Shown here: in pieces, positions 1,641 through 44,647 of the stretch
How positions within the stretch are numbered: the stretch's first letter is position 1
Layout: each line of letters starts with the position of its first letter
Virus record (IMG/VR): IMGVR_UViG_2639762844_000003
Source: a virus
Lineage: Duplodnaviria > Heunggongvirae > Uroviricota > Caudoviricetes
Reading direction: 5' to 3' (one strand)
Length of the DNA: 47,664 nt
The notes under the pieces: generated by a model
The model's input: the letters and a program-made list of their open reading frames with translations, nothing else
Told to the model about the DNA's origin: nothing
Database searches by the model: none
Position numbers and translations under genes: made by a program

Positions 1641-4112
1641 TTAAGAATCAGCCTGACTCGGGATCAGTTTTTGCCAGATAACTGAAACGTATTTTGCCTG
1701 GTAACGGGCGTCATCAAGTGCATTATGGCGCTCACCTTCGAATTGAATAGCCGTTCTGGCATCGAAGTCTATGGCTTTCCCCAGCTCAACGATTGTGCGT
1801 ACATCGCGATCGTTGTAGTAACGCCACGGGCAGGGGATCCCCTGCCGTTCGTATGAACGGCGCAAAATCGTGTTGTCGAAGTTGGCTCCATTTCCCCAGA
1901 CCTGAACAAAAAATTCACCGGAGTTTTCGTCGATAAATTCCCGCAATTGTAACAGTGCATCATCTAACGGGATTTCATCGGTCATAATGGCAGATTGCGC
2001 TTCGCGTGATTGCTTAAGCCACCATTTAATGGTGTCCCGATCAATGACTCCGCCAGCAGTTTCCAGATCGATAGTCTTACTAAATTCCGGTCCCATATCT
2101 CCGGTTTGCGGATCGAAAAATATTGCACCTATTGAGATGATCGGGGCATCAGGATTTTTTCCCATGGTTTCAAGGTCGATCATTAGATGGTCACACGTCC
2201 TGCTGGTGGATGTGATTTCGTGATGACCGTTCACCTTAATTGAGTGATCTGCCGTCTCGCCAGTTTCATTATCGCTATCGTGATGCTGATTGCCGCCAGT
2301 GTTCTCCTTGTGTGGATGTTCAGCGCCTTCCATTTTCTCCGGATCATCTTCCTGAACTTCAACCTGATACTCTTCATCGAATGTTTCCTGGTATGTTGCG
2401 TCGCCCATTACCGCGCCACAATCAGGGCAGTTGCCGCCGCCGGTCTGACCGCAGGCGGTGCAGACTTTTTCCACTTTCTGTTGCGCCACTGATTCAGGCT
2501 GTTTCGTTTCTGGCTCGTTTTGTAACGCATTTGGGCTGTTTTGTTCCGCTTTTTGGTAGTTCCGTTCCGATTCATGCTGGTTCTGGTTCACAGAATCGCG
2601 GGTCTGGATCCCCTTAACCCATTTCGGATCATTCGGGTCACTAATCCCTTCAACAAATTCACCACGTGATGCAGCAAGCAACTTATCGGCGTCAGGCTGG
2701 ATGATATTGGCTGCCTGCATAATTTTGTTTACTTCGTCAGCGGTAACTTTTATCGGCTCTGGTTGTTCTGAATCTTCAGCGGTATCTACATTTTGCGGTA
2801 AGCCCGTGTATGTGCCATTTTTTCGGGCAAAATATTCTTCTTTTGTGATTTCAGTGGCGCCAGCAGCCAGTGCCTTATCCAGACCAGAAAGTTTGTTTGC
2901 GCGACCGTATTTTTCTCCGTCCTTATCTGCGAAGAGGAAATAGAACGGCCCCTCACGCTCTACAGATGGTTCAGCTTCCGGCGCGGTTTCATTTTTTGGG
3001 ATATCAGATACCTCAGTTTCCACTGCATCAGTTTGTGTTTCTGATGACTGGAGAACATCAACAGTGCCCAGGTCTGTTTCTTCATTCTCAAACACGCCCT
3101 TTGTCGTCAGGTATTCGCAGATATATTTGTTCAGTGCTACGGGATCTTTGTGAATGTCGATCGGACGTTCACGGACAAGGCCAAAAATAGTTTGGCGGTC
3201 GTAGCGAAGGGCATCAGGCTGTTTGCGCATTGATGCCGAGATACGCTTCCAGTCTTCGCGGTCGTTATCGATAACTTCATTTTTTGCCCAGCGATGGATG
3301 CTGCCGTCAATGTTTCCGGCATCCACATCACCAGGCCAGAGAGCGTAGGCCAGTTCGTCATCCAGTGTTTTCCATGTCTGCTTGTATTCGCGATGAATGG
3401 CAGCAATGACCGGGCTGATTTTTCCTGTTGAATTTTCAGTGTACTGTTGATTGGCTCTGGCGCGGGCGAGATCAACAACAGACGTGTATTTTCCGGTTTC
3501 CTTGCGTTCACCTTCGCGACGTTTTTTCCAGATGCGCATCTCTGCCTGAATTTCGGGCCATTTGGCACCAGGAATACATTTATGCTTAACCCACCCAATG
3601 GCGTGCAACTTAAGCTCCGGATACATGGCGTTAACTTCTGGCATTTTCATCAACGCTTCAACGATATGTCCGTCGAATGTTGCCATGTCTTCCTGCAACA
3701 ATTCCTGTGCGCTAATAACCATATCAACGGTGATGTTTTCACATGTGTCGAACTTAACCATGACAGCGTTCTGTACTTCAGGGGCCAGCTTGTCAAAAGT
3801 GACGTTCATCGGATCGGATTCAGTCTCAACCGGGACAAAAGAAGCAGACTCCTCATCCCAGCGGTTTTCCTGCATATATTCAGCATCCCATGAATCGAGG
3901 GCAGGGCGGGGTATGCCAGGTTTATCCTCGCAGACAATAAATTTATAAGCGCAGTCCTGAGCAGCCGGATAATGTTCCAGGAATTGCCAGTGAAATTTTG
4001 CTCGAGCACGGCGTTCGTCGCTAGCTTCAATGGCTGTGGCTACAGCCACAGCGCCTTCTTCCCTTGTTGCCAGTTCGTCAGGAATAGCGGCGCAAATAAA
4101 GACTTTACTCAT
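1641..4112 (-). CDS. Phage exonuclease, 823 aa, with C-terminal DnaQ-like DEDDh 3'-5' exonuclease domain and a central Cys4 zinc ribbon
   Basis: C-terminus carries Exo I (MIDLETMG), Exo II (WGNGANFDNTIL) and Exo III (HNALDDARYQAKY) motifs; CTACGQTGGGNCPDCG zinc ribbon mid-protein; occupies the recombination-gene position next to xis-int. Confidence 0.8.
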   Translation of the reverse strand: MSKVFICAAIPDELATREEGAVAVATAIEASDERRARAKFHWQFLEHYPAAQDCAYKFIVCEDKPGIPRPALDSWDAEYMQENRWDEESASFVPVETESDPMNVTFDKLAPEVQNAVMVKFDTCENITVDMVISAQELLQEDMATFDGHIVEALMKMPEVNAMYPELKLHAIGWVKHKCIPGAKWPEIQAEMRIWKKRREGERKETGKYTSVVDLARARANQQYTENSTGKISPVIAAIHREYKQTWKTLDDELAYALWPGDVDAGNIDGSIHRWAKNEVIDNDREDWKRISASMRKQPDALRYDRQTIFGLVRERPIDIHKDPVALNKYICEYLTTKGVFENEETDLGTVDVLQSSETQTDAVETEVSDIPKNETAPEAEPSVEREGPFYFLFADKDGEKYGRANKLSGLDKALAAGATEITKEEYFARKNGTYTGLPQNVDTAEDSEQPEPIKVTADEVNKIMQAANIIQPDADKLLAASRGEFVEGISDPNDPKWVKGIQTRDSVNQNQHESERNYQKAEQNSPNALQNEPETKQPESVAQQKVEKVCTACGQTGGGNCPDCGAVMGDATYQETFDEEYQVEVQEDDPEKMEGAEHPHKENTGGNQHHDSDNETGETADHSIKVNGHHEITSTSRTCDHLMIDLETMGKNPDAPIISIGAIFFDPQTGDMGPEFSKTIDLETAGGVIDRDTIKWWLKQSREAQSAIMTDEIPLDDALLQLREFIDENSGEFFVQVWGNGANFDNTILRRSYERQGIPCPWRYYNDRDVRTIVELGKAIDFDARTAIQFEGERHNALDDARYQAKYVSVIWQKLIPSQADS

Positions 4113-4755: not shown

Positions 4756-4808
4756 ACGGCGGCAGAGCAGTCACGGAGTAAAACTGATACCGCCAAACGT
4801 CACCAGAA
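4756..4808 (-). ncRNA. dicF: DicF-like small RNA (antisense regulator of ftsZ)
   Basis: Minus strand reads TTTCTGGTGACGTTTGGCGGTATCAGTTTTACTCCGTGACTGCTCTGCCGCC followed by a T-run, matching the recalled DicF sequence; lies between the ydfA-like genes and dicB. Confidence 0.55.
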
Positions 4809-5068
4809 AATTGATAACAGAGGGCGTTGCAGCGGGGTTGTCACTTAAGCGTATGGTCAACCTGACAACTCGGTGTCCTCAACGGGGAAGGAATAACCCC
4901 GCCATACTTACCGCCGCGCCATTTCGCGGGTTGCCACAACCGGAAGCGCACGGTCGAATTAAATTTAACGACACCGTACAGTGAGACGAACTTCGCCGTG
5001 CGCTTTCGTGTTGTGTGCCTGCTTTTAACCACGTCAGGCGAGGTGGTATCCTTAAAATCACCACAGTT

Positions 5069-5644
5069 TTAAGGATTCATTAAGCAATGTCGCAACCACC
5101 AATAAATCCGCTTAAGAACATGAAAATTGATTACTGGTATAAAGCGCTTACAGTTGTTGGCGCTGCGTTGTTTGTCTTTAATGGAACGTCTTTTTTTGAC
5201 AGATATCCCGTTGTTCCATTGGGTTTTTTGTCCTCCGGCATCTTTTTTATTGGTTTGGGGGAGTGGATTAATCACCCTCTCAAAGTGAGATTTATTGGTC
5301 CTGGAGTTTGGACTCGTGGATATAATCGTTCTTCGTGCGCACTCGGTATCATCTTCGACATACTTGGTTGTTTCCTGATTGTTACAGGAGTCGTCAAGTT
5401 CTTCTGATGTAAAACCGCAAATGGGGCACGTAACGGGAATTTTGAAAAGCGTTTCTCCGGGTTCCAGAACAAAATTTTCTGCGGTCTGATTTTGCTTCTC
5501 ATATTTGTGCTCCGCGTCATTGTGAGAGCACATTCTTATTCTGAGTGCCTGTTTAAACTCACTGAAGCTGAGAGCTTCTTCGCCTTCGGCAAGGCCTTCG
5601 AAGTATTCTTCGTAAGCCTTTTCCATGATTGTGTCGAAATCCAT
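5069..5644 (-). CDS. Hypothetical protein in the ydfB/ydfC position; 3' half doubtful
   Basis: ATG at 5644 is coupled to the stop of the upstream ydfA-like gene (TGATATG) with a GGTGAG Shine-Dalgarno. The acidic N-terminal ~85 aa look protein-like; the K/R/N-rich C-terminal half overlaps a plus-strand membrane ORF and may be read-through. Confidence 0.35.
   Translation of the reverse strand: MDFDTIMEKAYEEYFEGLAEGEEALSFSEFKQALRIRMCSHNDAEHKYEKQNQTAENFVLEPGETLFKIPVTCPICGFTSEELDDSCNNQETTKYVEDDTECARRTIISTSPNSRTNKSHFERVINPLPQTNKKDAGGQKTQWNNGISVKKRRSIKDKQRSANNCKRFIPVINFHVLKRIYWWLRHCLMNP
5087..5407 (+). CDS. Small multi-pass membrane protein, hypothetical
   Basis: 106-aa ORF with about three hydrophobic helices; lies antisense to the 3' half of the 5069..5644 ORF, so only one of the two is likely real there. 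Confidence 0.35.
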   Translation: MSQPPINPLKNMKIDYWYKALTVVGAALFVFNGTSFFDRYPVVPLGFLSSGIFFIGLGEWINHPLKVRFIGPGVWTRGYNRSSCALGIIFDILGCFLIVTGVVKFF

Positions 5645-6706: not shown

Positions 6707-7211
6707 ACAGGCTCGTGAGGCTCTGGATGCCTGGATATGTCGACCAGGAATGACACAGGAGCAGGCGACGATATTAATCACTGAAGCATTCTGGGCTTTG
6801 AAAGAGCGCCCGAACATCGATGTTCAGCGTGTCACAGATGAAGGTGGCGCGGTTGATCAGCGAGCGCTTGGCGTTAATCGAGTGAAGATATTCGAACGCT
6901 GGAAGGCTATCGACACTAGGGATAAGCGTGAAAAGTTCACGGCGCTAGTGCCTGCAATTATGGAGGCTATCCGGATTAATGATTTCAGGTTGTATCGTGA
7001 AATTAGTGACGGAAAAAGCATCACGTACATGATCGCCGGGTTAAACAAAGAATATGGCGATGTGGTGGAGTCCGGACTGCTTTTTGCTGATCCTGCCGTA
7101 GTGGATCGTGAAACTGACGAACTTATAGAAAAAGCAATTGCTTTCAAACTTGCGTATCGACAGCAATACAAACAAAAAGCTGGATGGAATTATGAGCCTT
7201 CTTTTTGCTGA
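6690..7211 (+). CDS. YdaT-like early regulator
   Basis: 173-aa ORF directly after the cro-like gene, the position held by YdaT/CII-type proteins in Rac-like immunity regions. Confidence 0.55.
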   Translation: MKITPEQAREALDAWICRPGMTQEQATILITEAFWALKERPNIDVQRVTDEGGAVDQRALGVNRVKIFERWKAIDTRDKREKFTALVPAIMEAIRINDFRLYREISDGKSITYMIAGLNKEYGDVVESGLLFADPAVVDRETDELIEKAIAFKLAYRQQYKQKAGWNYEPSFC

Positions 7212-8157
7212 ACGCCCACTGGTTATAAACACACAGCTTGCGATGAAGATTGGCTTAAATGAAGCCATTGTGTTGCAGCAGTTGCATTACTGGTTGAGAG
7301 ATACCAATTCCGGCATGGAATGTGATGGTGTTCGCTGGATTTACAACACAACGGAACAATGGCTGGAACAGTTCCCATTCTGGTCAGAGTCAACGTTAAA
7401 GCGCGCGTTTGCAAGTCTGAAAACGCTGGGGCTTTTGCGTTGTGAAAAGCTCAATAAATCAAAGCGCGATATGACCAATTTCTACACGATCAACTACGGG
7501 AGCGAGCTTTTAGATGGTGGCAAATTGAGCGAATCCATCGGTTTAAAATGCGCCGCTCCATCAGGTCAAAATGACACGATGGAAGAGGTCAAAATGAAAC
7601 GCTCCATTGGTTCAAAACGACCCAATGTCATCGGGTCAAAATGGCCTGATGATCTTACAGAGAATACAACAGAGATTACTACAGAGAATAAAAACACTTT
7701 TCGTCCGGAAGCTTCGCAACCGGACCCGCAGACCGCTGAACAGGATTTTTTAACCCGGAACCCCGACGCGGTTGTGTTTAGTGCGAAAAAACGCCAGTGG
7801 GGTAGCAGGGAGGATTTGGCGTGTGCGCAGTGGATTTGGGGGCGGATCGTGAACCTTTACGAACAGGCTGCCAGCGACGATGGAGAGATCATGCGACCAA
7901 AAGAGCCTAACTGGACAGCCTGGGCCAATGACGTGCGCACAATGCGGATGCTGGATGGCAGAAGCCACAGACAAATTTGCGAAATGTTTGGTCGGGTACA
8001 GCGAGATCAATTCTGGGTAAAAAACATCATGAGCCCGTCAAAACTCCGCGAAAAATGGGACGAACTGGTCATCCGCCTGGGACGTTCACCTGTACAGCGT
8101 TGTATGAATCATATTTCTGAACCGGATACAGAAATTCCGCCTGGTTTCAGAGGATAA
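7192..8157 (+). CDS. Phage replication initiation protein (replisome-organiser N-terminus, DnaT-like C-terminus)
   Basis: 321-aa product from the internal ATG at 7192; the coding sequence contains a five-copy iteron array, as lambda O does. Confidence 0.7.
   Translation: MSLLFAERPLVINTQLAMKIGLNEAIVLQQLHYWLRDTNSGMECDGVRWIYNTTEQWLEQFPFWSESTLKRAFASLKTLGLLRCEKLNKSKRDMTNFYTINYGSELLDGGKLSESIGLKCAAPSGQNDTMEEVKMKRSIGSKRPNVIGSKWPDDLTENTTEITTENKNTFRPEASQPDPQTAEQDFLTRNPDAVVFSAKKRQWGSREDLACAQWIWGRIVNLYEQAASDDGEIMRPKEPNWTAWANDVRTMRMLDGRSHRQICEMFGRVQRDQFWVKNIMSPSKLREKWDELVIRLGRSPVQRCMNHISEPDTEIPPGFRG
7540..7643 (+). repeat. Origin-like iteron array, GGT(C/T)AAAA(T/C)G x5
   Basis: Direct repeats at 7540-7550, 7564-7573, 7587-7596, 7609-7619 and 7634-7643, spaced about 23 bp, followed by an A-rich tract with ACAGAGA repeats (7650-7700). 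Confidence 0.55.
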
Positions 8158-8197
8158 GTTTTGATTTCAGGTCATGAGGTAATTTTAAGGGGGACTT

Positions 8198-8599
8198 GTG
8201 GCAAAAGTTTTTACACAAGAAGAGCGGGAAAAAATTAAAGGGCAGGTGGTGGAACTCGTGCGCCAGAGCGGTCGTGAGACGTTACGGCAACTGGAAGCTA
8301 AAACAGGTGCGACTAGATATCTGATGAGCGTTCTTGCCAGAGAGCTGGTAGCCAGTGGCGATGTATACAACTCCGGCTACGGGTTATTCCCGTCTGAACA
8401 GGCGCGTAAGGACTGGCAAAACGCCCGCAAAAAACTATCGAGGGCAAAGGTGAAGAAAACAGCTGTGGTTGATCCGGACCTTATCTGGTCGTTACCTGAT
8501 GGAGAAATACGTCGCTACGACAGTCGCCTAAACATAATCTGTCGCGAGTGCCGGATGAGTGAAGTTATGCAGCGCATACTGGCATTTTATCAGGGATAA
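8198..8599 (+). CDS. Hypothetical protein
   Basis: 133-aa ORF with GTG start preceded by AAGGGGGA; backbone GC content. Confidence 0.55.
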   Translation: MAKVFTQEEREKIKGQVVELVRQSGRETLRQLEAKTGATRYLMSVLARELVASGDVYNSGYGLFPSEQARKDWQNARKKLSRAKVKKTAVVDPDLIWSLPDGEIRRYDSRLNIICRECRMSEVMQRILAFYQG

Positions 8600-8696
8600 T
8601 GTTAGGTATTTTAGACGTTACTAGATTAAAAAGCATTAGTTCAGGAGTGAATTGACATTCTCATTTTTCATGGCACAGGGTAGATCTGGCGTGGTT

Positions 8697-8720
8697 GTCC
8701 GCTTTGTGCCAGAAGCGGAC
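8697..8720. repeat. Hairpin GTCCGCTT-N8-AAGCGGAC at the left edge of the AT-rich island
   Basis: 8-bp perfect stem; a near-identical stem (GTCCGCT-N10-AGCGGAC) occurs at 10404-10427 at the island's right edge. Confidence 0.5.
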
Positions 8721-8799
8721 GTTACAATACAATCACTATGCTAATGCGCATTGATATGTGATATAACAATAATCAACCGTTCAAAAAGGAGCATTTATA

Positions 8800-10427: not shown

Positions 10428-10892
10428 TAGAAGGTTAGCTTGTGTCGGACTTTGCGTATTAAATGACTAGTGGTTGAGCCCCATTTCCACAGAAAAAATC
10501 AGAGAAACTATACCCAATAGTTGTATTGAATCACTGACGAGACAGCCTCATATTCATCAGGACTGGTGTACGTCCAATACAGGAGGTTGTGGTGCTGGTT
10601 CTCAAATGTGCGCTGGCTATTACGGCTGTAATGGCGATTTATTGTCTTGCTATTGTTCTTATGGATCGCCTTTCTGACTGATTTCACATTGGCGAGGTAA
10701 CGGTAGTTAAGTAGAATGGCTGCGGGTGCTTGAGGCTATCTGCCTCGGGCATGAACACCAACGGCAGATAGAGAAAAGCCCCAGTTAACATTACGCGTCC
10801 TGCAAGACGCTTAACATTAATCTGAGGCCAATTTCATGCTAGACACATGTAGGTTAGCCTCTTACGTGCCGAAAGGCAAGGAGAAGCAGGCT

Positions 10893-11048
10893 ATGAAGCA
10901 GCAAAAGGCGATGTTAATCGCCCTGATCGTCATCTGTTTAACCGTCATAGTGACGGCACTGGTAACGAGGAAAGACCTCTGCGAGGTACGAATCCGAACC
11001 GGGCAGACGGAGGTCGCTGTCTTCACAGCTTACGAACCTGAGGAGTAA
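10893..11048 (+). CDS. hok: Hok/Gef-family type I toxin (membrane-depolarising peptide)
   Basis: 51-aa product MKQQKAMLIALIVICLTVIVTALVTRKDLCEVRIRTGQTEVAVFTAYEPEE, near-identical in pattern to Gef/HokC; in-frame upstream ATG at 10836 is mok-like. Confidence 0.8.
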   Translation: MKQQKAMLIALIVICLTVIVTALVTRKDLCEVRIRTGQTEVAVFTAYEPEE

Positions 11049-12924: not shown

Positions 12925-13299
12925 ATGCTCATAGATTTGGTTTTACCTTACCCGCCGACGGTGAACACTTACTGGCGACGCCGTGGCAGCACATATTTTA
13001 TCTCGGAGGAGGGAAAGCGTTATCGCCGGGCTGTGGCGCTTATTGTTCGCCAGCAGCGGCTGAAATTAAGCCTGTCCGGAAGGCTGGCGATAAAGGTGAT
13101 TGCAGAGCCACCGGATAAGCGTCGTCGCGACCTGGACAATATCCTGAAAGCACCGCTGGATGCGCTGACGCATGCGGGAGTGTTAATGGACGATGAGCAG
13201 TTTGATGAAATCAATATCGTTCGTGGTCAGCCAGTATCTGGTGGACGTCTGGGGGTGAAGATTTACCCCATAATGCATGAAGAGCAGGTCAAAAAATGA
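12925..13299 (+). CDS. rusA: RusA Holliday-junction resolvase
   Basis: 124-aa product with ..DKRRRDLDNILKAPLDALTHAGVLMDDEQ.. closely paralleling E. coli RusA; AAGAGGTG Shine-Dalgarno. Confidence 0.85.
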   Translation: MLIDLVLPYPPTVNTYWRRRGSTYFISEEGKRYRRAVALIVRQQRLKLSLSGRLAIKVIAEPPDKRRRDLDNILKAPLDALTHAGVLMDDEQFDEINIVRGQPVSGGRLGVKIYPIMHEEQVKK

Positions 13300-14117
13300 A
13301 ACTGGAAGATTTACCGAAATACTACTCCCCAAAATCCCCTTGCCTGACCGATGCATCGGCCTCAACGTCAAAAGATGCGCTGAGTATCACTGATGTGATG
13401 GCCGCGCAGGGCATGACACAGAATCGGGCTGAGATGGGGTTTTCTGCGTTCCTGGGGAAAATGGGCATCAGTATGAATGACAGGGCGCGGGCAACAGAAT
13501 TACTGGCAGATTATGCACTCAGTCGGTGCGATCGTGTGGCGGCGTTGAGAAAACTTCCGGTAGAAATAAAACCGTTAGTGATGCGCATTATGGCTTCGTA
13601 CGCTTTTGAGGATTATGCCCGCAGCGCAGCGAGTAAAAAGCAGTGCCCTTGTTGCTATGGGGAAAAATTTATTGAAAGCGTAGTTTTTACAAACAAGGTC
13701 CAGTATCCGGATGGTAAGCCGCCGGTATGGGCAAAGTGTACGAAAGGTGTGTATCCGTCTTACTGGGAAGAATGGAAAAAAGTCAGGGAGGTGGTAAAAG
13801 TTGCCTGTCCGGAGTGTGGCGGAAAGGGTGAGGTTTCCACCGTCTGTAAGGATTGCCGTGGGCGTGGTGTCGCCATTCACCGTGAAGAGTCGGTAAAACG
13901 TGGTATGCCTGTTATCAGAGACTGCCAGCGTTGTGGTGGTCGTGGCTATGAAAGACTACCATCAACGGAGGCATTTAATGCTATATGCGAGGTGACAAAC
14001 CAGATAACACGCGCGTCATGGGAAAAAACAGTTAAGAAATTCTATGATGCGCTGGTGACCCGGTTTGATATTGAAGAAGCATGGGCTGAGCGGCAGTTAA
14101 AAAAGGTAACTAGGTAA
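13296..14117 (+). CDS. Late antiterminator Q (Cys-rich zinc-binding type)
   Basis: 273-aa ORF with several CxxC pairs, start overlapping the rusA stop (ATGA), immediately upstream of a promoter-terminator pair. Confidence 0.8.
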   Translation: MKLEDLPKYYSPKSPCLTDASASTSKDALSITDVMAAQGMTQNRAEMGFSAFLGKMGISMNDRARATELLADYALSRCDRVAALRKLPVEIKPLVMRIMASYAFEDYARSAASKKQCPCCYGEKFIESVVFTNKVQYPDGKPPVWAKCTKGVYPSYWEEWKKVREVVKVACPECGGKGEVSTVCKDCRGRGVAIHREESVKRGMPVIRDCQRCGGRGYERLPSTEAFNAICEVTNQITRASWEKTVKKFYDALVTRFDIEEAWAERQLKKVTR

Positions 14118-14121
14118 CAAG

Positions 14122-14149
14122 GTTGATTTTTCCGGAATCTGTGGTAAAT
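14122..14149 (+). promoter_or_regulatory. Candidate late promoter pR' (Q utilisation region)
   Basis: -35 TTGATT, 16-nt spacer, -10 TAAATT just after the Q stop. Confidence 0.5.
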
Positions 14150-14199
14150 TCGTCATAACGATGGGCTTTTTATACCTGACGTTAGAAGAGTTTCTACAA

Positions 14200-14222
14200 C
14201 CCGCCACCGAGCGGGTTTTTTA
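14200..14222 (+). terminator. tR'-like rho-independent terminator
   Basis: CCCGC-CACCGA-GCGGG hairpin plus TTTTTTAT, about 50 nt downstream of the candidate pR'. Confidence 0.65.
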
Positions 14223-14260
14223 TTGCGGAATTAATTACGGACCGTTATTATTCTGCTCCC

Positions 14261-14336
14261 GGTCCTTTAGCTCAGTGGTGAGAGCGAGCGACTCATAATC
14301 GCCAGGTCGCTGGTTCAAATCCAGCAAGGGCCACCA
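14261..14336 (+). tRNA. tRNA with CAU anticodon (Met, or Ile2 ileZ-like)
   Basis: Cloverleaf read by hand: 7-bp acceptor stem, GCTCAGTGG D-arm, CAU anticodon loop, GGTTCAAATCC T-arm, 3' ACCA. Confidence 0.85.
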
Positions 14337-14441
14337 TCACAAACCGCCATGAGCTTATCAGGAAGAGCAGACGACACGATAACAGGGTTGTTGGTGCGGG
14401 GGGGGGGCGGGTCCCCGATGGCGGTCCATTATCGGTATTCA

Positions 14442-14518
14442 GCGTTGTTAGCTCAGCCGGACAGAGCAATTGCCTTCTAAGCAATCGGTCACTGGTTCGA
14501 ATCCAGTACAGCGCGCCA
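14442..14518 (+). tRNA. tRNA-Arg (UCU anticodon)
   Basis: Acceptor GCGTTGT/ACAGCGC, D-arm GCTCAGCCGGACAGAGC, anticodon stem ATTGC/GCAAT with loop CTTCTAA, T-arm GGTTCGAATCC, 3' GCCA. Confidence 0.85.
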
Positions 14519-14628
14519 TATTCATTCTTCCAGATTCCTTCCGGCAGAGCCTTATACTGGAATATACCTGGCTCAGGATATTGTTGAAAATATTATATGT
14601 TTGTCAAAAATAAAAGTTCTGTTAAGTA

Positions 14629-14982
14629 TTGATTGAGTGTTTGTTATACGGTCTAATGGTTTTTTCAGCATTAAATATTTATCATTCATATGGTGTGGGT
14701 AGAGTGAATATTGATGAGGCGTCGGGGTGTTTCATCCTTAGGCAGCGTATTGATATAGTCAATGCAGCACGAGCAAAGGCCTTCAGCCGTTTGACAGTTT
14801 TGTTCTGTGCTCCTGATCGTCTTTCGGGAAGAGACGTTATTATTCTGAATAGTGATGCTATACAGAGGGTTTGCGATGAGTTCATGGTTGCTAATTCAGA
14901 ATTATTTGCTCTTGTTCAGGAGTACAACAGAATAGCCAGGACCTGTGGTATGGATGAACTTCGGATTACTCATCTGGGGTAG
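14629..14982 (+). CDS. Hypothetical protein (weak call)
   Basis: 117-aa ORF with GTG start and no clear Shine-Dalgarno. Confidence 0.3.
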   Translation: MIECLLYGLMVFSALNIYHSYGVGRVNIDEASGCFILRQRIDIVNAARAKAFSRLTVLFCAPDRLSGRDVIILNSDAIQRVCDEFMVANSELFALVQEYNRIARTCGMDELRITHLG

Positions 14983-15456
14983 ATACATATCTGGATTATC
15001 ACCTGTTACGGTAAAAAGTGATTGCTTACTGTTTTTGTGAATGGCATTGCAGCAGCCGGATAATGTCAGTGCTGGCTGACGGTGTGCTGGTGGCGGGTGT
15101 GGTGGTTGTTGCTTTCCCGTTGCTGAAAAAGAAAACGCCAGACTGTTAGCCGGGTATCAGTTAGCGGGAGAAATTTTTAAATACTTCACAATTCAGGCGG
15201 TTGACTGTTCTCTGGTTTGCGGGGAGTTTGTTAAAAGAAACTGGCATGGTGAATCCCCCTGTGCGGAGGGGCAATCAGCGAGTAGGTATATGGGATAATC
15301 GCGGATTCAGGTGCTGGTACTGAATTCACCGGGAGGCACCCGGCACCATGCACTTCAATAGATTCTCTCCACATTATGGATATTCTTTCAGAATATCCCA
15401 CGCAGACTTTGTGTAAATGTTAACAAATGTGCGTTTTATTTGATCTGATTCGCTGT

Positions 15457-15486
15457 TTGAGCGTCCAAAACAACGGTATATATAAT
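15457..15486 (+). promoter_or_regulatory. Sigma70-like promoter upstream of the first TolA-like lipoprotein gene
   Basis: -35 TTGAGC (15457-15462), 18-nt spacer, consensus -10 TATAAT (15481-15486); GAGGA Shine-Dalgarno and ATG follow. Confidence 0.5.
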
Positions 15487-15515
15487 CCTTTACTATATGA
15501 CATATGTGAGGAAAA

Positions 15516-15944
15516 ATGGGTTTTCGTAGCGCATCAATTCTTACGTTGATTATTAGTGGGATTATTATCGGGTGCACTGATGCTGTATCGACAAATTATC
15601 ATGACCGTACATCATATTACTCCGATAAAGCAATAGAGACACAGTATGTGAGTTCATCTGAACGTACTTCTGATGTTAGTGAGGATATCCGTCTGTATGC
15701 CCATCAAATCAAGAGCGCCATCGAAAAACAGTTCGGGGATGCGAGTAAGTATTCAGGAAAAGAGTGTACACTGAGAATGCATATGGCCCCGAATGGCCTT
15801 CTACTGGAGGTTAAAAGAGAAAGTGGAGACCTCGATTTATGTCGTGAAGCGATGAATGCGATAAAGAATGCTGATATACCTGCCCCCCCTTCGCCGGAAG
15901 TATATAAAGTATTTCAAAATGGGGTGCTGGATTTTAAACCCTGA
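15516..15944 (+). CDS. Lipoprotein with TolA C-terminal (domain III)-like domain
   Basis: Signal peptide with IIGC lipobox; C-terminal ~85 aa (HQIKSAIEKQFGDASKYSGKECTLRMHMAPNGLLLEV...LCREAMNAIKNADIPAPPSPEVYKVFQNGVLDFKP) align motif for motif with the recalled TolA C-terminus (..IKSAIESKFYDASSYAGKTCTLRIKLAPDGMLLDIK...LCQAALAAAKLAKIPKPPSQAVYEVFKNAPLDFKP). Confidence 0.8.
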   Translation: MGFRSASILTLIISGIIIGCTDAVSTNYHDRTSYYSDKAIETQYVSSSERTSDVSEDIRLYAHQIKSAIEKQFGDASKYSGKECTLRMHMAPNGLLLEVKRESGDLDLCREAMNAIKNADIPAPPSPEVYKVFQNGVLDFKP

Positions 15945-16094
15945 TATTTATTGTTTTGTAATAAACGGTTTCGGCTTAGGTTTGTTCTGACACAACTACG
16001 GCACTGAGCTAAATCTAGCGGATAGTCAGCTCTGAGCCAGTGGCGGACGTAACAACTACTATTGCTGAGATTTTAATGGATTGAGGAGCAAGAA

Positions 16095-16490
16095 GTGGGA
16101 TTAAAGAAAATCGTTATGTTGACTTTTTGGGTCAGTTTTGTTGCGGGATGCACACCTTTACACCCTTCAGATTGCCACAAAACTACTGCTACAGGTAGTT
16201 GCAGTTCAGGACGCTGGGATGATCAGGATGAATGGGGGGCGCAAGCGCGGGGAATCAGAGCTGCAATTAATGCCAAACTTGATGAGCCGCATAACTGGAA
16301 AGGGAAAAAATGCAGGTTGCATATGGAATTCTCTCAGGATGGCACGGCGTTAAAAATATCTACCAGTAACGGTGATAAAGCCTATTGCGAAGCGATAAAG
16401 TCCGCAGCTCATAAAGCCAAATTTCCGGCCTTCAACAATCCGGAAGTCTACAGAGATTTTCAGAAATCTGGCTTTGACATGCGAGGTTAG
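16095..16490 (+). CDS. Lipoprotein, diverged paralog of the TolA-domain lipoprotein
   Basis: GTG start after GAGGAG; VAGC lipobox; C-terminus KKCRLHMEFSQDGTALKIS...YCEAIKSAAHKAKFPAFNNPEVYRDFQKSGFDMRG keeps the same motif order as the upstream paralog. Confidence 0.75.
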   Translation: MGLKKIVMLTFWVSFVAGCTPLHPSDCHKTTATGSCSSGRWDDQDEWGAQARGIRAAINAKLDEPHNWKGKKCRLHMEFSQDGTALKISTSNGDKAYCEAIKSAAHKAKFPAFNNPEVYRDFQKSGFDMRG

Positions 16491-16741
16491 CTCTTCAATT
16501 ACTATATCTCATTCATAGCAAACTGACAGATTTGATGATGTTCTATATACGAAACCTGTGATGTCAAGTCTGAGCTAATACAAATAAACATAATATCAGA
16601 GAAATACATTTTATTAGCTCGCTACGGCGAGCTTTTTATATTGCATCGTCTCCAGCATATATATCAATTAAGGCTCTGATTGATGTGTCTGGAAGCCTAC
16701 ACATAATAACTATGCCATCCGTTCCGTGCGGAGGTGAGGCT

Positions 16742-16957
16742 ATGAAATCCATGGACAAAATTTCAACAGGCATTGCCTACGGCACCTCCGCAGGCAGTGC
16801 TGGCTACTGGTTTTTACAGCTGCTCGATAAAGTCACGCCCTCACAGTGGGCAGCAATAGGTGTGCTGGGTAGCCTGGTATTTGGCCTGCTGACGTACCTG
16901 ACAAACCTTTATTTCAAGATTAAAGAAGACAAGCGTAAGGCTGCACGGGGAGAGTAA
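16742..16957 (+). CDS. Phage-21-type pinholin (class II holin) with dual-start motif
   Basis: [71 protein letters not shown] closely matches recalled S21; two in-frame ATGs (MKSM) for antiholin and holin; GGAGGTGAGG Shine-Dalgarno. Confidence 0.85.
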
Positions 16958-16961
16958 TTCA

Positions 16962-17306
16962 ATGACTCAAAAATATGAACTGATTGTGAAAGGGATCCGC
17001 AATTTTGAGAATAAAGTTACGGTAACTTTAGCGTTACGGGACAAAGAACGCTTTGACGGTGAAATTTTTGACCTGGACATCTCGCTGGACCGTGTTGAAG
17101 GTGCCGCGCTGGAGTTTTATGAGGCAGCAGCCAGAAGGAGCATCAGACAGGTCTTCCTGGATGTTGCTGCCGGGTTATGTGAAGGGGATGAGCTGTCGCC
17201 GGAAAAGCGCCCCATAATTTTAGAGGCGCAGAATGTGTGGATAACCTACAAAGGAAAGCTACCGGGAAGAATTACTGGTTCTCTGAAGACTCCGCCGAAA
17301 TGGTAA
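16962..17306 (+). CDS. YdfR-like protein between holin and endolysin
   Basis: 114-aa ORF directly after the holin, as ydfR sits between essQ and rrrQ in Qin. Confidence 0.55.
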   Translation: MTQKYELIVKGIRNFENKVTVTLALRDKERFDGEIFDLDISLDRVEGAALEFYEAAARRSIRQVFLDVAAGLCEGDELSPEKRPIILEAQNVWITYKGKLPGRITGSLKTPPKW

Positions 17307-17476
17307 TTTCACCAGCATATTTTTCTTCCAGTAATACCGCCAGCCACTTGAAAGAATTTTGTTGTTGCTGGGACCATTTGGGGTTGAGTGATTCAAGCTG
17401 GAGCGATGCCAGTGTTGGTTGCATTTGTTCCTTGGGAATTGAGAATTGAAGTGGTCAACAAAAACTGGCCACCGAG

Positions 17477-18624
<1,148 letters not shown>

Positions 18625-18902
18625 TATGGCACCTGTGTTGTTCTGAGGTGAGCATATCACCTCTGTTCAGGTGGCCAAATTCAGTAAACCACTTCAAATG
18701 CCAGATATGAAAATGCGACAGTAAGGGCATTTACATCATCCCGAAGCTTGGAAATGCAGTCGAGCAACTCCTGTAGAGAAATGGTGCTATTGTCCATAAA
18801 CAATCCTCTCTATTGTATTTAACTATTCCTTGCCTGATTCAACAGGCCGGGACAGATAAACATATCCAGGGTTCAGAAACCGATAAATCCTGATAAATAT
18901 CC

Positions 18903-44066: not shown

Positions 44067-44647
44067 TGGCATTCAGAATGAGTGAACAACCACGGACCAT
44101 AAAAATTTATAATCTGCTGGTCGGAACTAATGAATTTATTGGTGAAGGTGACGCATATATTCCGCCTCATACAGGTCTGCCAGCAAACAGTACCGATATT
44201 GCACCACCAGATATTCCTGCTGGCTTTGTGGCTGTTTTCAACAGTGATGAGGCATCGTGGCATCTCGTTGAAGACCATCGGGGTAAAACGGTTTATGACG
44301 TGGCTTCCGGCGACGCGTTATTTATTTCTGAACTCGGCTCATTACCGGAAAATGTCACCTGGTTATCCCCGGAAGGGGAGTTTCAGAAGTGGAACGGCAC
44401 AGCCTGGGTGAAAGATGCAGAAGCAGAAAAACTATTCCGGATCCGGGAGGCGGAAGAAACAAAAAACAGCCTGATGCAGGCAGCGAATGAGCATATTGCG
44501 CCACTTCAGGATGCTGTAGATCTGGAAATCGCAACGGAGGAAGAAAACTCGTTGCTGGAAGCCTGGAAAAAGTATCGGGTGTTGCTGAACCGTGTTAATA
44601 CAACAACTGCACCGGATATTGAATGGCCAGTAGCACCTATAGGGTAA
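44066..44647 (+). CDS. tfa: Tail fibre assembly protein (Tfa-like)
   Basis: 193-aa ORF whose start overlaps the stf stop; lambda order. Confidence 0.85.

Follow-up and report, generated by a model that had tools for sequence, protein, structure and literature searches.

Predicted lipoprotein copies of TolA domain III encoded in the late region of a Qin-type Escherichia coli prophage: candidate decoys for Tol-dependent import

The present study concerns two adjacent genes, open reading frame (ORF) A and ORF B, in a stretch of 47,664 nucleotides (nt) from a virus of the class Caudoviricetes (IMG/VR record IMGVR_UViG_2639762844_000003), which we refer to as the window. The window is the reverse complement of positions 1676006-1723669 of the chromosome of E. 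coli ECC-1470 (NZ_CP010344.1; 0 mismatches), a bovine mastitis isolate, and is a complete Qin-type lambdoid prophage with its integration site at ydfJ. Both genes encode predicted lipoproteins that end in a domain resembling domain III of the cell envelope protein TolA (TolA III), and sequence comparison and structure prediction confirmed that this resemblance is far beyond chance. The two proteins represent a known domain in a new, recurrent, and mobile lipoprotein architecture with an uncharacterised role. We tentatively propose, with somewhat less than even confidence, that A and B are TolA III copies which are anchored in the outer membrane, face the periplasm, and may act as uncoupled decoys. 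The genes and domains are located as follows.

15516-15944, + strand: ORF A, prelipoprotein of 142 aa, ATG start, Shine-Dalgarno sequence GAGGA at 15508-15512
15678-15941, + strand: TolA III of ORF A, codons 55-142
16095-16490, + strand: ORF B, prelipoprotein of 131 aa, GTG start, Shine-Dalgarno sequence GAGGAG at 16083-16088
about codons 46-131 of ORF B, + strand: TolA III of ORF B

Both proteins matched the Pfam family PF06519 (TolA_C), A with 82.6 bits (E 2.4e-23) and B with 54.6 bits (E 1.3e-14), against a gathering cut-off of 25 bits. In phmmer searches of the PDB, residues 55-142 of A aligned with TolA 334-421 (E 5.3e-28) and residues 51-129 of B with TolA 341-419 (E 5.4e-9). The significant matches were solely to E. 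coli TolA III (1S62, 3QDP, 2X9A, 1TOL, and recent cryo-electron microscopy entries of full-length TolA). These alignments are gap-free, with 52 of 88 residues identical in A (59%) and 27 of 79 in B (34%), and both proteins terminate at the last residue of TolA. The motifs that the original prediction had listed for A (IKSAIE, GK-CTLR, AP-G-LL, LC, IP-PPS, and VY-VF-N-LDFKP) are all visible in the TolA alignment. Cys363 and Cys388, the disulfide cysteines of TolA, are kept in A and B and were invariant in 20/20 aligned homologues. In the AlphaFold2 models, the predicted local distance difference test score exceeded 85 over residues 51-142 of A and 80 over residues 41-131 of B, and both models were disordered before the domain. 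Foldseek placed the predicted structure of A on 2x9a_B with a root-mean-square deviation of 0.6 Å over 88 residues (template modelling score 0.96), and that of B on 3qdp with 1.0 Å (0.92). Both models thereby superpose on the alpha/beta fold of solved TolA III, which has three helices and a three-stranded sheet. The original prediction had named an alignment with TolA and a fold comparison as its own check, and both ORFs gave significant results in Pfam, PDB phmmer, and Foldseek.

The N-terminus of A reads MGFRSASILTLIISGIIIGC. Its codons 1-20 specify a signal peptide and the lipobox IIGC, with MGFRSASILTLIISGIIIG directly preceding the lipobox Cys20 (15573-15575), and codons 21-54 form a poorly conserved linker that is predicted to be disordered. 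B begins with MGLKKIVMLTFWVSFVAGC; its codons 1-19 specify a signal peptide and the lipobox VAGC, with MGLKKIVMLTFWVSFVAG directly preceding Cys19 (16149-16151). In each case a positively charged n-region is followed by a hydrophobic core and a lipobox fitting [LVI][ASTVI][GAS]C. When 20 homologues of the two types were aligned, the lipobox Cys was invariant and the preceding Gly nearly so, which bears out the earlier claim that both ORFs carry a signal peptide and a lipobox. We consider A and B to be predicted lipoproteins of the Sec/LspA type. In E. coli, an Asp at position +2 after the Cys governs Lol avoidance. This position is occupied by Thr in A (C-T-D) and in B (C-T-P), and mostly by Ala elsewhere in the B family. 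The absence of Asp at +2 in A and B agrees with sorting to the outer membrane under this rule.

The GTG of B stands six bases 3' of GAGGAG, whereas PGAP places the start at the internal ATG 16116. The GTG at 16095 is better supported because plasmid homologues have ATG at the same position. Annotations of the B genes on plasmids give 143 aa, counted from an ATG further upstream (MVLRSIWIEEQYMGVKK...), at 4995-5426 in our locus of the pO157 plasmid pF8798-1 and at 3444-3875 in that of the IncK2/Z plasmid pEC9682-2. In these genes the internal Met, which is aligned with the GTG in the window and opens a proper signal peptide, appears to be the more likely start. The pO157 and IncK2/Z plasmid genes encode identical mature proteins.

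Neither protein is a complete TolA. Against the TolA equivalog NF007065 (cut-off 213 bits), A scored 107.8 and B 53.7, and A passed TIGR02794 solely through the last approximately 100 profile positions. The matches were limited to positions 293-386 of 387 (NF007065) and 265-362 of 362 (TIGR02794). The transmembrane helix of domain I and the long helical domain II were not found in A or B; a lipoprotein signal peptide stands in their place. Since domains I and II are missing and NF007065 was failed, the gene name tolA given to ORF A by PGAP is a misnomer. Without these domains, A and B cannot connect to the TolQ-TolR motor. A and B are therefore like E. coli TolA III (residues ~334-421; 1S62, 3QDP/3QDR, 1TOL, and 2X9A) in PF06519 membership, predicted fold, disulfide, and C-terminal end. 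However, TolA joins this domain to the transmembrane domain I and the helical domain II, whereas A and B join it to a lipoprotein signal peptide and a short linker. The TolA gene belongs to the tol-pal operon, whereas the genes for A and B are on prophages and plasmids.

A profile built from A and B retrieved 570 proteins at E ≤1e-3 from 1.84 billion representatives. Among the best 150 of these 570, 79 had a length of 100-170 residues, and a lipobox-like motif was present near the N-terminus in 59 of the 79. For most of the short homologues (58/73), E. coli TolA III was a closer match than either A or B, the identities being ≤67%. This survey suggests that short, lipid-anchored proteins consisting of TolA III are a recurrent architecture of which A and B are two branches. 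One distant short homologue, P0193, sits on a 2.8-kb contig.

The original prediction had regarded the second ORF as a diverged copy of the first. This view did not hold: identity with the domain in host TolA is 59% for A, as against just 29% between A and B, and the two lineages are separate. A-type genes (91% and 66-72% identity) occur alone in the slot between Q and the holin gene of other lambdoid prophages, and tblastn found no B beside them. An origin by tandem duplication was rejected because A is nearer to TolA than to B, A is found alone, and B is separately widespread. On the same grounds, we regard A and B as two independently acquired modules.

The B lineage comprised 370 cluster representatives, with identities of at least 78% among the best 120 of the 370. 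B was located at 26 loci from species-representative genomes, which correspond to about 26 enterobacterial species. The hosts belong to Enterobacter, Leclercia, Lelliottia, Klebsiella, Raoultella, Citrobacter, Pluralibacter, Pantoea, Buttiauxella, Kluyvera, Yokenella, and Serratia, and a Shigella flexneri copy is 98% identical. The chromosomal genes in Enterobacter, Leclercia, and Lelliottia are set among metabolic genes. No conserved synteny was found for B, the flanking DNA being unrelated between most loci, even within Enterobacter. Matches to B were present in 607 plasmid records. On E. coli MPF_I IncK2/Z conjugative plasmids, B lies directly 3' of a nikB-type relaxase gene, and in pO157-type plasmids it is flanked by the hok/psiA leading region and by toxB. 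Two contigs from metagenome-assembled genomes carry B with upstream flanks that match the IncK2/Z and pO157 plasmid contexts.

A search for a mobilising element around B showed just a leader of approximately 100 nt and occasional GTCCGCT-N8-10-AGCGGAC hairpins. The leader is conserved upstream of the B genes and contains a TTGAAA box (loci L105-L127, L088, L091, and L094). The hairpins flank B on one or both sides in Citrobacter ANG330, Enterobacter chinensis, and Serratia grimesii. In Serratia marcescens (6957-8736 of loci L094/L095), B stands immediately upstream of genes encoding GmrSD_N (DUF262) and HEPN-domain proteins, between nrdDG and an arsenic-transporter-family gene (PF03773, ArsP_1), and this cluster looks like a small defence islet.

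The A-B pair was present at a query coverage of at least 80% in 774 of 5,426 complete E. coli genomes (14%), and some match to the A-B query in 1,340 of them. Identical copies of A and B occur in hundreds of genomes. The ratio of nonsynonymous to synonymous substitution rates (dN/dS) between phage, plasmid, and chromosomal copies of B was 0.04-0.12 at dS values of 0.5-1.1, the linker included. For A, it was 0.24 in the domain and 0.59 in the linker. As judged from these substitution patterns, B is under strong purifying selection, and A has a constrained domain and a drifting linker. The selection analysis indicates that A and B are functional genes and not debris of tolA.

Group A colicins, the klebicins and cloacins related to them, and filamentous phages share TolA III as their entry point in the periplasm. 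The N-terminus of TolB, colicin N, and the N1 domain of the filamentous-phage gene 3 protein (g3p-N1) each add a strand to TolA beta3 at the extreme C-terminus, and prolines at D418 or K420 abolish this addition (PMC4339652, PMC3365938). The D418P and K420P mutants lose TolB binding and are leaky (PMC4339652). Colicin A binds the opposite face of TolA, through Leu375-Pro380 and Lys368, Lys379, and Lys396 (PMC4339652, PMC3365938). The affinities for TolA are ~1 µM for colicin N, ~12-15 µM for g3p-N1, and ~40 µM for TolB (PMC4339652). The corresponding residues in A and B are as follows.

beta3: TolA APLDFKP; A GVLDFKP; B SGFDMRG
colicin A strand: TolA LLDIKP; A LLEVKR; B ALKIST
K368: TolA K; A H; B E
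K379: TolA K; A K; B S
K396: TolA K; A K; B H

The LDFKP end of beta3 is identical in A and TolA, and the positions of D418 and K420 are free of proline in both A and B. We consider that the strand-augmentation site is plausibly kept in A and B, and that colicin A binding is plausibly kept in A only.

The linker of B, CTPLHPSDCHKTTATGSCSSGRWDDQDEWG, is strongly conserved and contains cysteines. Codons 19-48 (16149-16238) follow the pattern CxPLHPSxCHKTTATGSCSSGRWDDQDEWG, which includes an additional pair of cysteines and hardly varies from Serratia to E. coli. From the alignment, this conservation far exceeds the need of a simple tether. The linker sequence GSCSSGRWDDQDEWG was compared with the TolB box of colicins, which is defined by the core DG(S/T)GWSSE and, in the ColE9 type (GASDGSGWSSENNPW; PMC2821528), by a distal Trp. 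A TolB-box mimic was rejected, as the linker shares with DG(S/T)GWSSE only Trp residues and an acidic character.

A and B appear to form one unit in the window, with the following elements, of which the promoter-like and terminator-like sites are motif matches.

15457-15486, + strand: sigma-70 promoter-like site (TTGAGC-18 nt-TATAAT), 30 nt 5' of the ATG that opens ORF A
15945-16094, + strand: A-B spacer of 150 nt, which holds the Shine-Dalgarno sequence of B and, from the leader conserved in the B family, the 3' part
16616-16633, with tail to 16641, + strand: terminator-like hairpin AGCTCGC-TACG-GCGAGCT, followed by TTTTTATATT

The promoter-like site has 10 of 12 consensus matches and is the best + strand site within 14000-17000. 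Its TATAAT is the consensus -10 box that had been predicted for the first ORF, as a promoter-like match. A TTG and a -10-like box stand at an equal position upstream of the 66%-identical A variant (loci L085/L087), the flanks of which are otherwise unrelated. The hairpin lies between B and the holin gene and has a stem of 7 bp, 5 of them G-C, and a T run; a motif scan found no terminator-like site in the 150-nt spacer. The B copy in the window has lost the TTGAAA box that precedes its chromosomal counterparts, which suggests that A and B are co-transcribed. A and B are a fixed pair in this phage lineage: among IMG/VR contigs, B is 3' of A in 77/77, with a spacing of exactly 150 nt in 76 of these, and a holin gene follows A-B in all 68 contigs with enough DNA. 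The same Q precedes this block in just 33 of 72. The A-B-holin block is constant on mosaic phage backbones. A and B lie between conserved modules and are present or absent among related phages, as is the case for morons.

The features of A and B comprise a linker of approximately 26-34 residues that is flexible or structured, a complete predicted TolA III fold with its disulfide, and the C-terminal edge strand beta3. Under the decoy reading that we tentatively favour, both proteins would be tethered to the outer membrane's inner leaflet, as the E. coli +2 sorting rule predicts. This is where the translocation domains of colicins would leave OmpF and where g3p would arrive after pilus retraction. 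Real TolA must reach through the cell wall when energised, and the outer-membrane copies would meet the ligands first. A and B may then bind colicin translocation domains and g3p ahead of TolA. Since the affinities of these ligands are above that of TolB, a modest amount of extra domain would capture invaders in preference to TolB. Import would stall because A and B, being uncoupled from TolQ-TolR, would apply no force, and the lysogen or plasmid host would become tolerant to Tol-dependent bacteriocins and filamentous phages. The two modules may widen the spectrum, A as a near copy of E. coli TolA III with a partial colicin A site, and B as a divergent and widely mobile form. Expression in the lysogen would proceed from the unit's own promoter and would be boosted after induction by Q-dependent read-through.

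Several lines of background are in keeping with this proposal. In work by Levengood-Freyermuth, Click and Webster from 1993, an exported periplasmic C-terminal fragment of TolA reportedly led to tolerance of group A colicins and to leakiness. The pili of MPF_I plasmids are receptors of filamentous phages. We infer that the presence of B on MPF_I plasmids fits protection from pilus-specific filamentous phages that use TolA as a co-receptor. The PDB entry 2X9A, to which the model of A was matched, is a complex of If1 g3p with TolA. Periplasmic g3p-N1 sequesters TolA, which makes cells resistant to colicin A and lowers fd uptake by 4 logs (PMC10424213). The distribution of B over plasmids, including pO157, the Serratia locus with GmrSD and HEPN genes, and unrelated loci fits a gene for competition or defence. 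The moron anatomy, the invariant lipobox Cys, and the strong purifying selection also speak for the proposal. A wider claim, that lipid-anchored TolA III proteins are widespread mobile import-hub decoys with two lineages in the window, is possible, and we hold it with more doubt. Their carriers would be prophages, conjugative plasmids (IncK2/Z and pO157), and small genomic islets, and the hosts would gain tolerance to Tol-dependent bacteriocins and pilus-specific filamentous phages. Such hub mimicry would differ from the blocking of receptors, from immunity proteins, and from anti-phage systems that act inside the cell.

A number of points weigh against A and B as decoys. Everything beyond the assignment as TolA III lipoproteins is inferred. 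A decoy would also bind the TolB N-terminus and could cause a costly, leaky tol phenotype. The colicin A contact residues are lost in B (ALKIST; K368E, K379S, and K396H), and its near-invariant linker points to an additional specific partner that would be superfluous for a simple decoy. Many B genes are chromosomal without mobile-element neighbours, so that a physiological role in the envelope is possible. No family in PADLOC-DB v2 matched A or B at E ≤1, and no paper was found on lambdoid lysogens that are colicin-tolerant through TolA III lipoproteins.

The main rival explanation, which we consider rather unlikely, involves TolB: A and B may modulate Tol-Pal by binding the TolB N-terminus or Pal at the outer membrane, and thereby damp or redirect the system. 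Outer-membrane stability, vesiculation, or septal constriction would be altered, and a membrane weakened at the time when late-operon expression sets in would aid phage lysis and release. The best conserved surface element is indeed beta3, the TolB-binding strand, and TolA D418P and K420P, which do not bind TolB, are leaky (PMC4339652). The invariant linker of B suggests a specific cellular partner. The genes are in the late unit directly upstream of the holin gene, where read-through from Q would increase their expression at induction, as happens with stx. However, promoter-like and terminator-like sites belong to the A-B unit itself, the B genes of plasmids and chromosomes are unlinked to lysis genes, and lysis is already provided for in the phage by genes for a holin and an endolysin and by an Rz-like gene. 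The weak affinity between TolA and TolB (~40 µM) would demand large amounts of protein. Furthermore, despite the cost that a constitutive tol phenotype would have, the genes are maintained in 14% of complete E. coli genomes and are under purifying selection.

We consider it improbable that B is an ordinary accessory lipoprotein of the Enterobacteriaceae envelope with another partner, unrelated to colicin or phage import and picked up incidentally by mobile elements, in which case A would be a similar but separate matter. The copies among metabolic genes in Enterobacter, Leclercia, and Lelliottia speak for this explanation, as do the strongly conserved linker with its extra Cys pair and the identity to TolA III of just 34%, with loss of the colicin A site. 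However, the flanks are unrelated even within Enterobacter, which indicates that the gene moves as a single-gene islet and is not inherited in place, and B turns up repeatedly on conjugative plasmids and pO157 as well as in the moron slots of prophages. The 59% identity of A to TolA III and its identical beta3 end are also hard to explain without the binding of TolA ligands. That the genes are non-functional fragments of tolA, captured by recombination and carried without selection, is scarcely credible. The proteins are short and PGAP calls A simply TolA; however, each has gained a full signal peptide and a lipobox together with a good Shine-Dalgarno sequence, neither the lipobox Cys nor the disulfide Cys pair varies, and identical copies are spread over hundreds of genomes. 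The dN/dS values (0.04-0.12 for B and 0.24 for the domain of A) effectively refute this explanation.

Small outer-membrane lipoproteins for exclusion are encoded by accessory genes of other phages, namely Cor (phi80, N15, HK022, and mEp167) and Llp (T5). They protect against other phages and colicin M, which share the entry route, by inactivating FhuA. A and B differ from them in having an unrelated fold and in copying the periplasmic hub; they would titrate the invader and not block a receptor. Superinfection immunity by filamentous-phage g3p (pIII) is closer, as titration at the same TolA III interface is used for exclusion (PMC10424213). It is the mirror image of the decoys proposed here: an oversupplied ligand blocks the hub, whereas A and B would supply a disconnected hub that soaks up the ligand. 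The exported TolA fragment of the 1993 study, an artificial counterpart of the action proposed for A and B, was reportedly soluble and overexpressed, whereas A and B are natural and predicted to be lipid-anchored. The leakiness seen with that fragment illustrates a cost that natural decoys would have to escape.

If A and B are decoys, they would account for part of the unexplained colicin tolerance of natural isolates, and hub mimicry would be a new principle in superinfection exclusion and bacteriocin resistance. A role would also be assigned to a gene conserved on pO157 and IncK2/Z plasmids and to a cassette that approximately 14% of complete E. coli genomes carry, and antimicrobials based on colicins or phages would be concerned where they depend on entry by the Tol route. 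If Tol-Pal is perturbed instead, the proteins would be natural tools for studies on TolA-TolB force transduction and vesiculation. The cassette is common and lies on much-studied elements (Qin-type prophages, pO157, and IncK plasmids).

The TolA homology of these genes is already in databases and is not new. RAST names A 'TolA protein' in phage mEp460_ev081. PGAP names A 'tolA' and B 'TolA C-terminal domain-containing protein', with the full label 'cell envelope integrity TolA C-terminal domain-containing protein', and the Gene Ontology term 'bacteriocin transport' on the PGAP entries was transferred from TolA. Both proteins matched phrog_5772 ('unknown function') over the full length (A, E 1.6e-62; B, E 8.5e-65). 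Among 50,697 sequenced phage records, mEp460_ev081 alone carries the genes (megablast and tblastn), and Foldseek found no match at E ≤1e-3 in the BFVD viral structures. No functional study of such a protein was found in the literature, most subscription journals lying outside the searched full texts; three papers (PMC2948877, PMC11125564, and PMC6854850) contain passing mentions as annotation labels only. The original prediction knew of no characterised phage protein of this type, which agrees with the literature, PHROG 5772, PADLOC, BFVD, and the 50,697 phage records.

The surroundings of the A-B unit in the late region of the prophage are listed below.

13296-14117, + strand: late antiterminator Q, 273 aa (PGAP 'antitermination protein'; equal-length homologues carry PF03589)
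14198-14217: terminator-like hairpin 3' of Q (motif match)
14261-14336, + strand: tRNA with anticodon CAT (Met according to ARAGORN; Ile, of the lysidine ileX/ileZ type known from Stx phages, according to PGAP)
14442-14518, + strand: tRNA-Arg with anticodon TCT, which reads AGA
15215-15405, + strand: STnc100 small RNA, full-length Rfam match (114 bits against a gathering score of 47)
16742-16957, + strand: holin gene essD, first gene of the lysis cassette

The gene order is Q, terminator-like hairpin, tRNA(CAT), tRNA-Arg(TCT), two small ORFs, STnc100, A, B, hairpin, and essD. The A-B unit occupies the moron slot between Q/tRNA and the holin gene, in which Shiga toxin (Stx) phages carry stxAB. 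The original prediction had placed the pair after Q, pR'/tR', and the tRNAs at this stx-equivalent position. The order after Q, a terminator-like site, and the tRNAs in the stx slot was recovered; however, pR' was not pinpointed by a consensus promoter scan. The G+C content of A and B is 42-46%, and the two genes together contain 4 AGA, 1 AGG, and 5 ATA codons. The phage tRNAs may serve codons of A and B, as proposed for stx. STnc100, which is directly upstream of the promoter-like site of A, is a known prophage-associated small RNA said to be related to PasD (bioRxiv 10.64898/2026.05.13.724894), and among 72 viral contigs carrying A, 33 have both this RNA and the same Q.

Besides the holin, the prophage encodes an endolysin and an Rz-like gene. 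An IS3-family insertion sequence (ISEc52-like; its transposase is frameshifted in the PGAP annotation) is present at ~17455-18660 on the - strand, between a ydfR-like gene and the lysozyme gene rrrQ. This element splits the lysis cassette, and the prophage may therefore be lysis-defective. Further Rfam matches in the prophage are the sok antitoxin RNA beside hokD (10724-10898, + strand), DicF (4757-4808, - strand), and IS009 (44409-44607, + strand).

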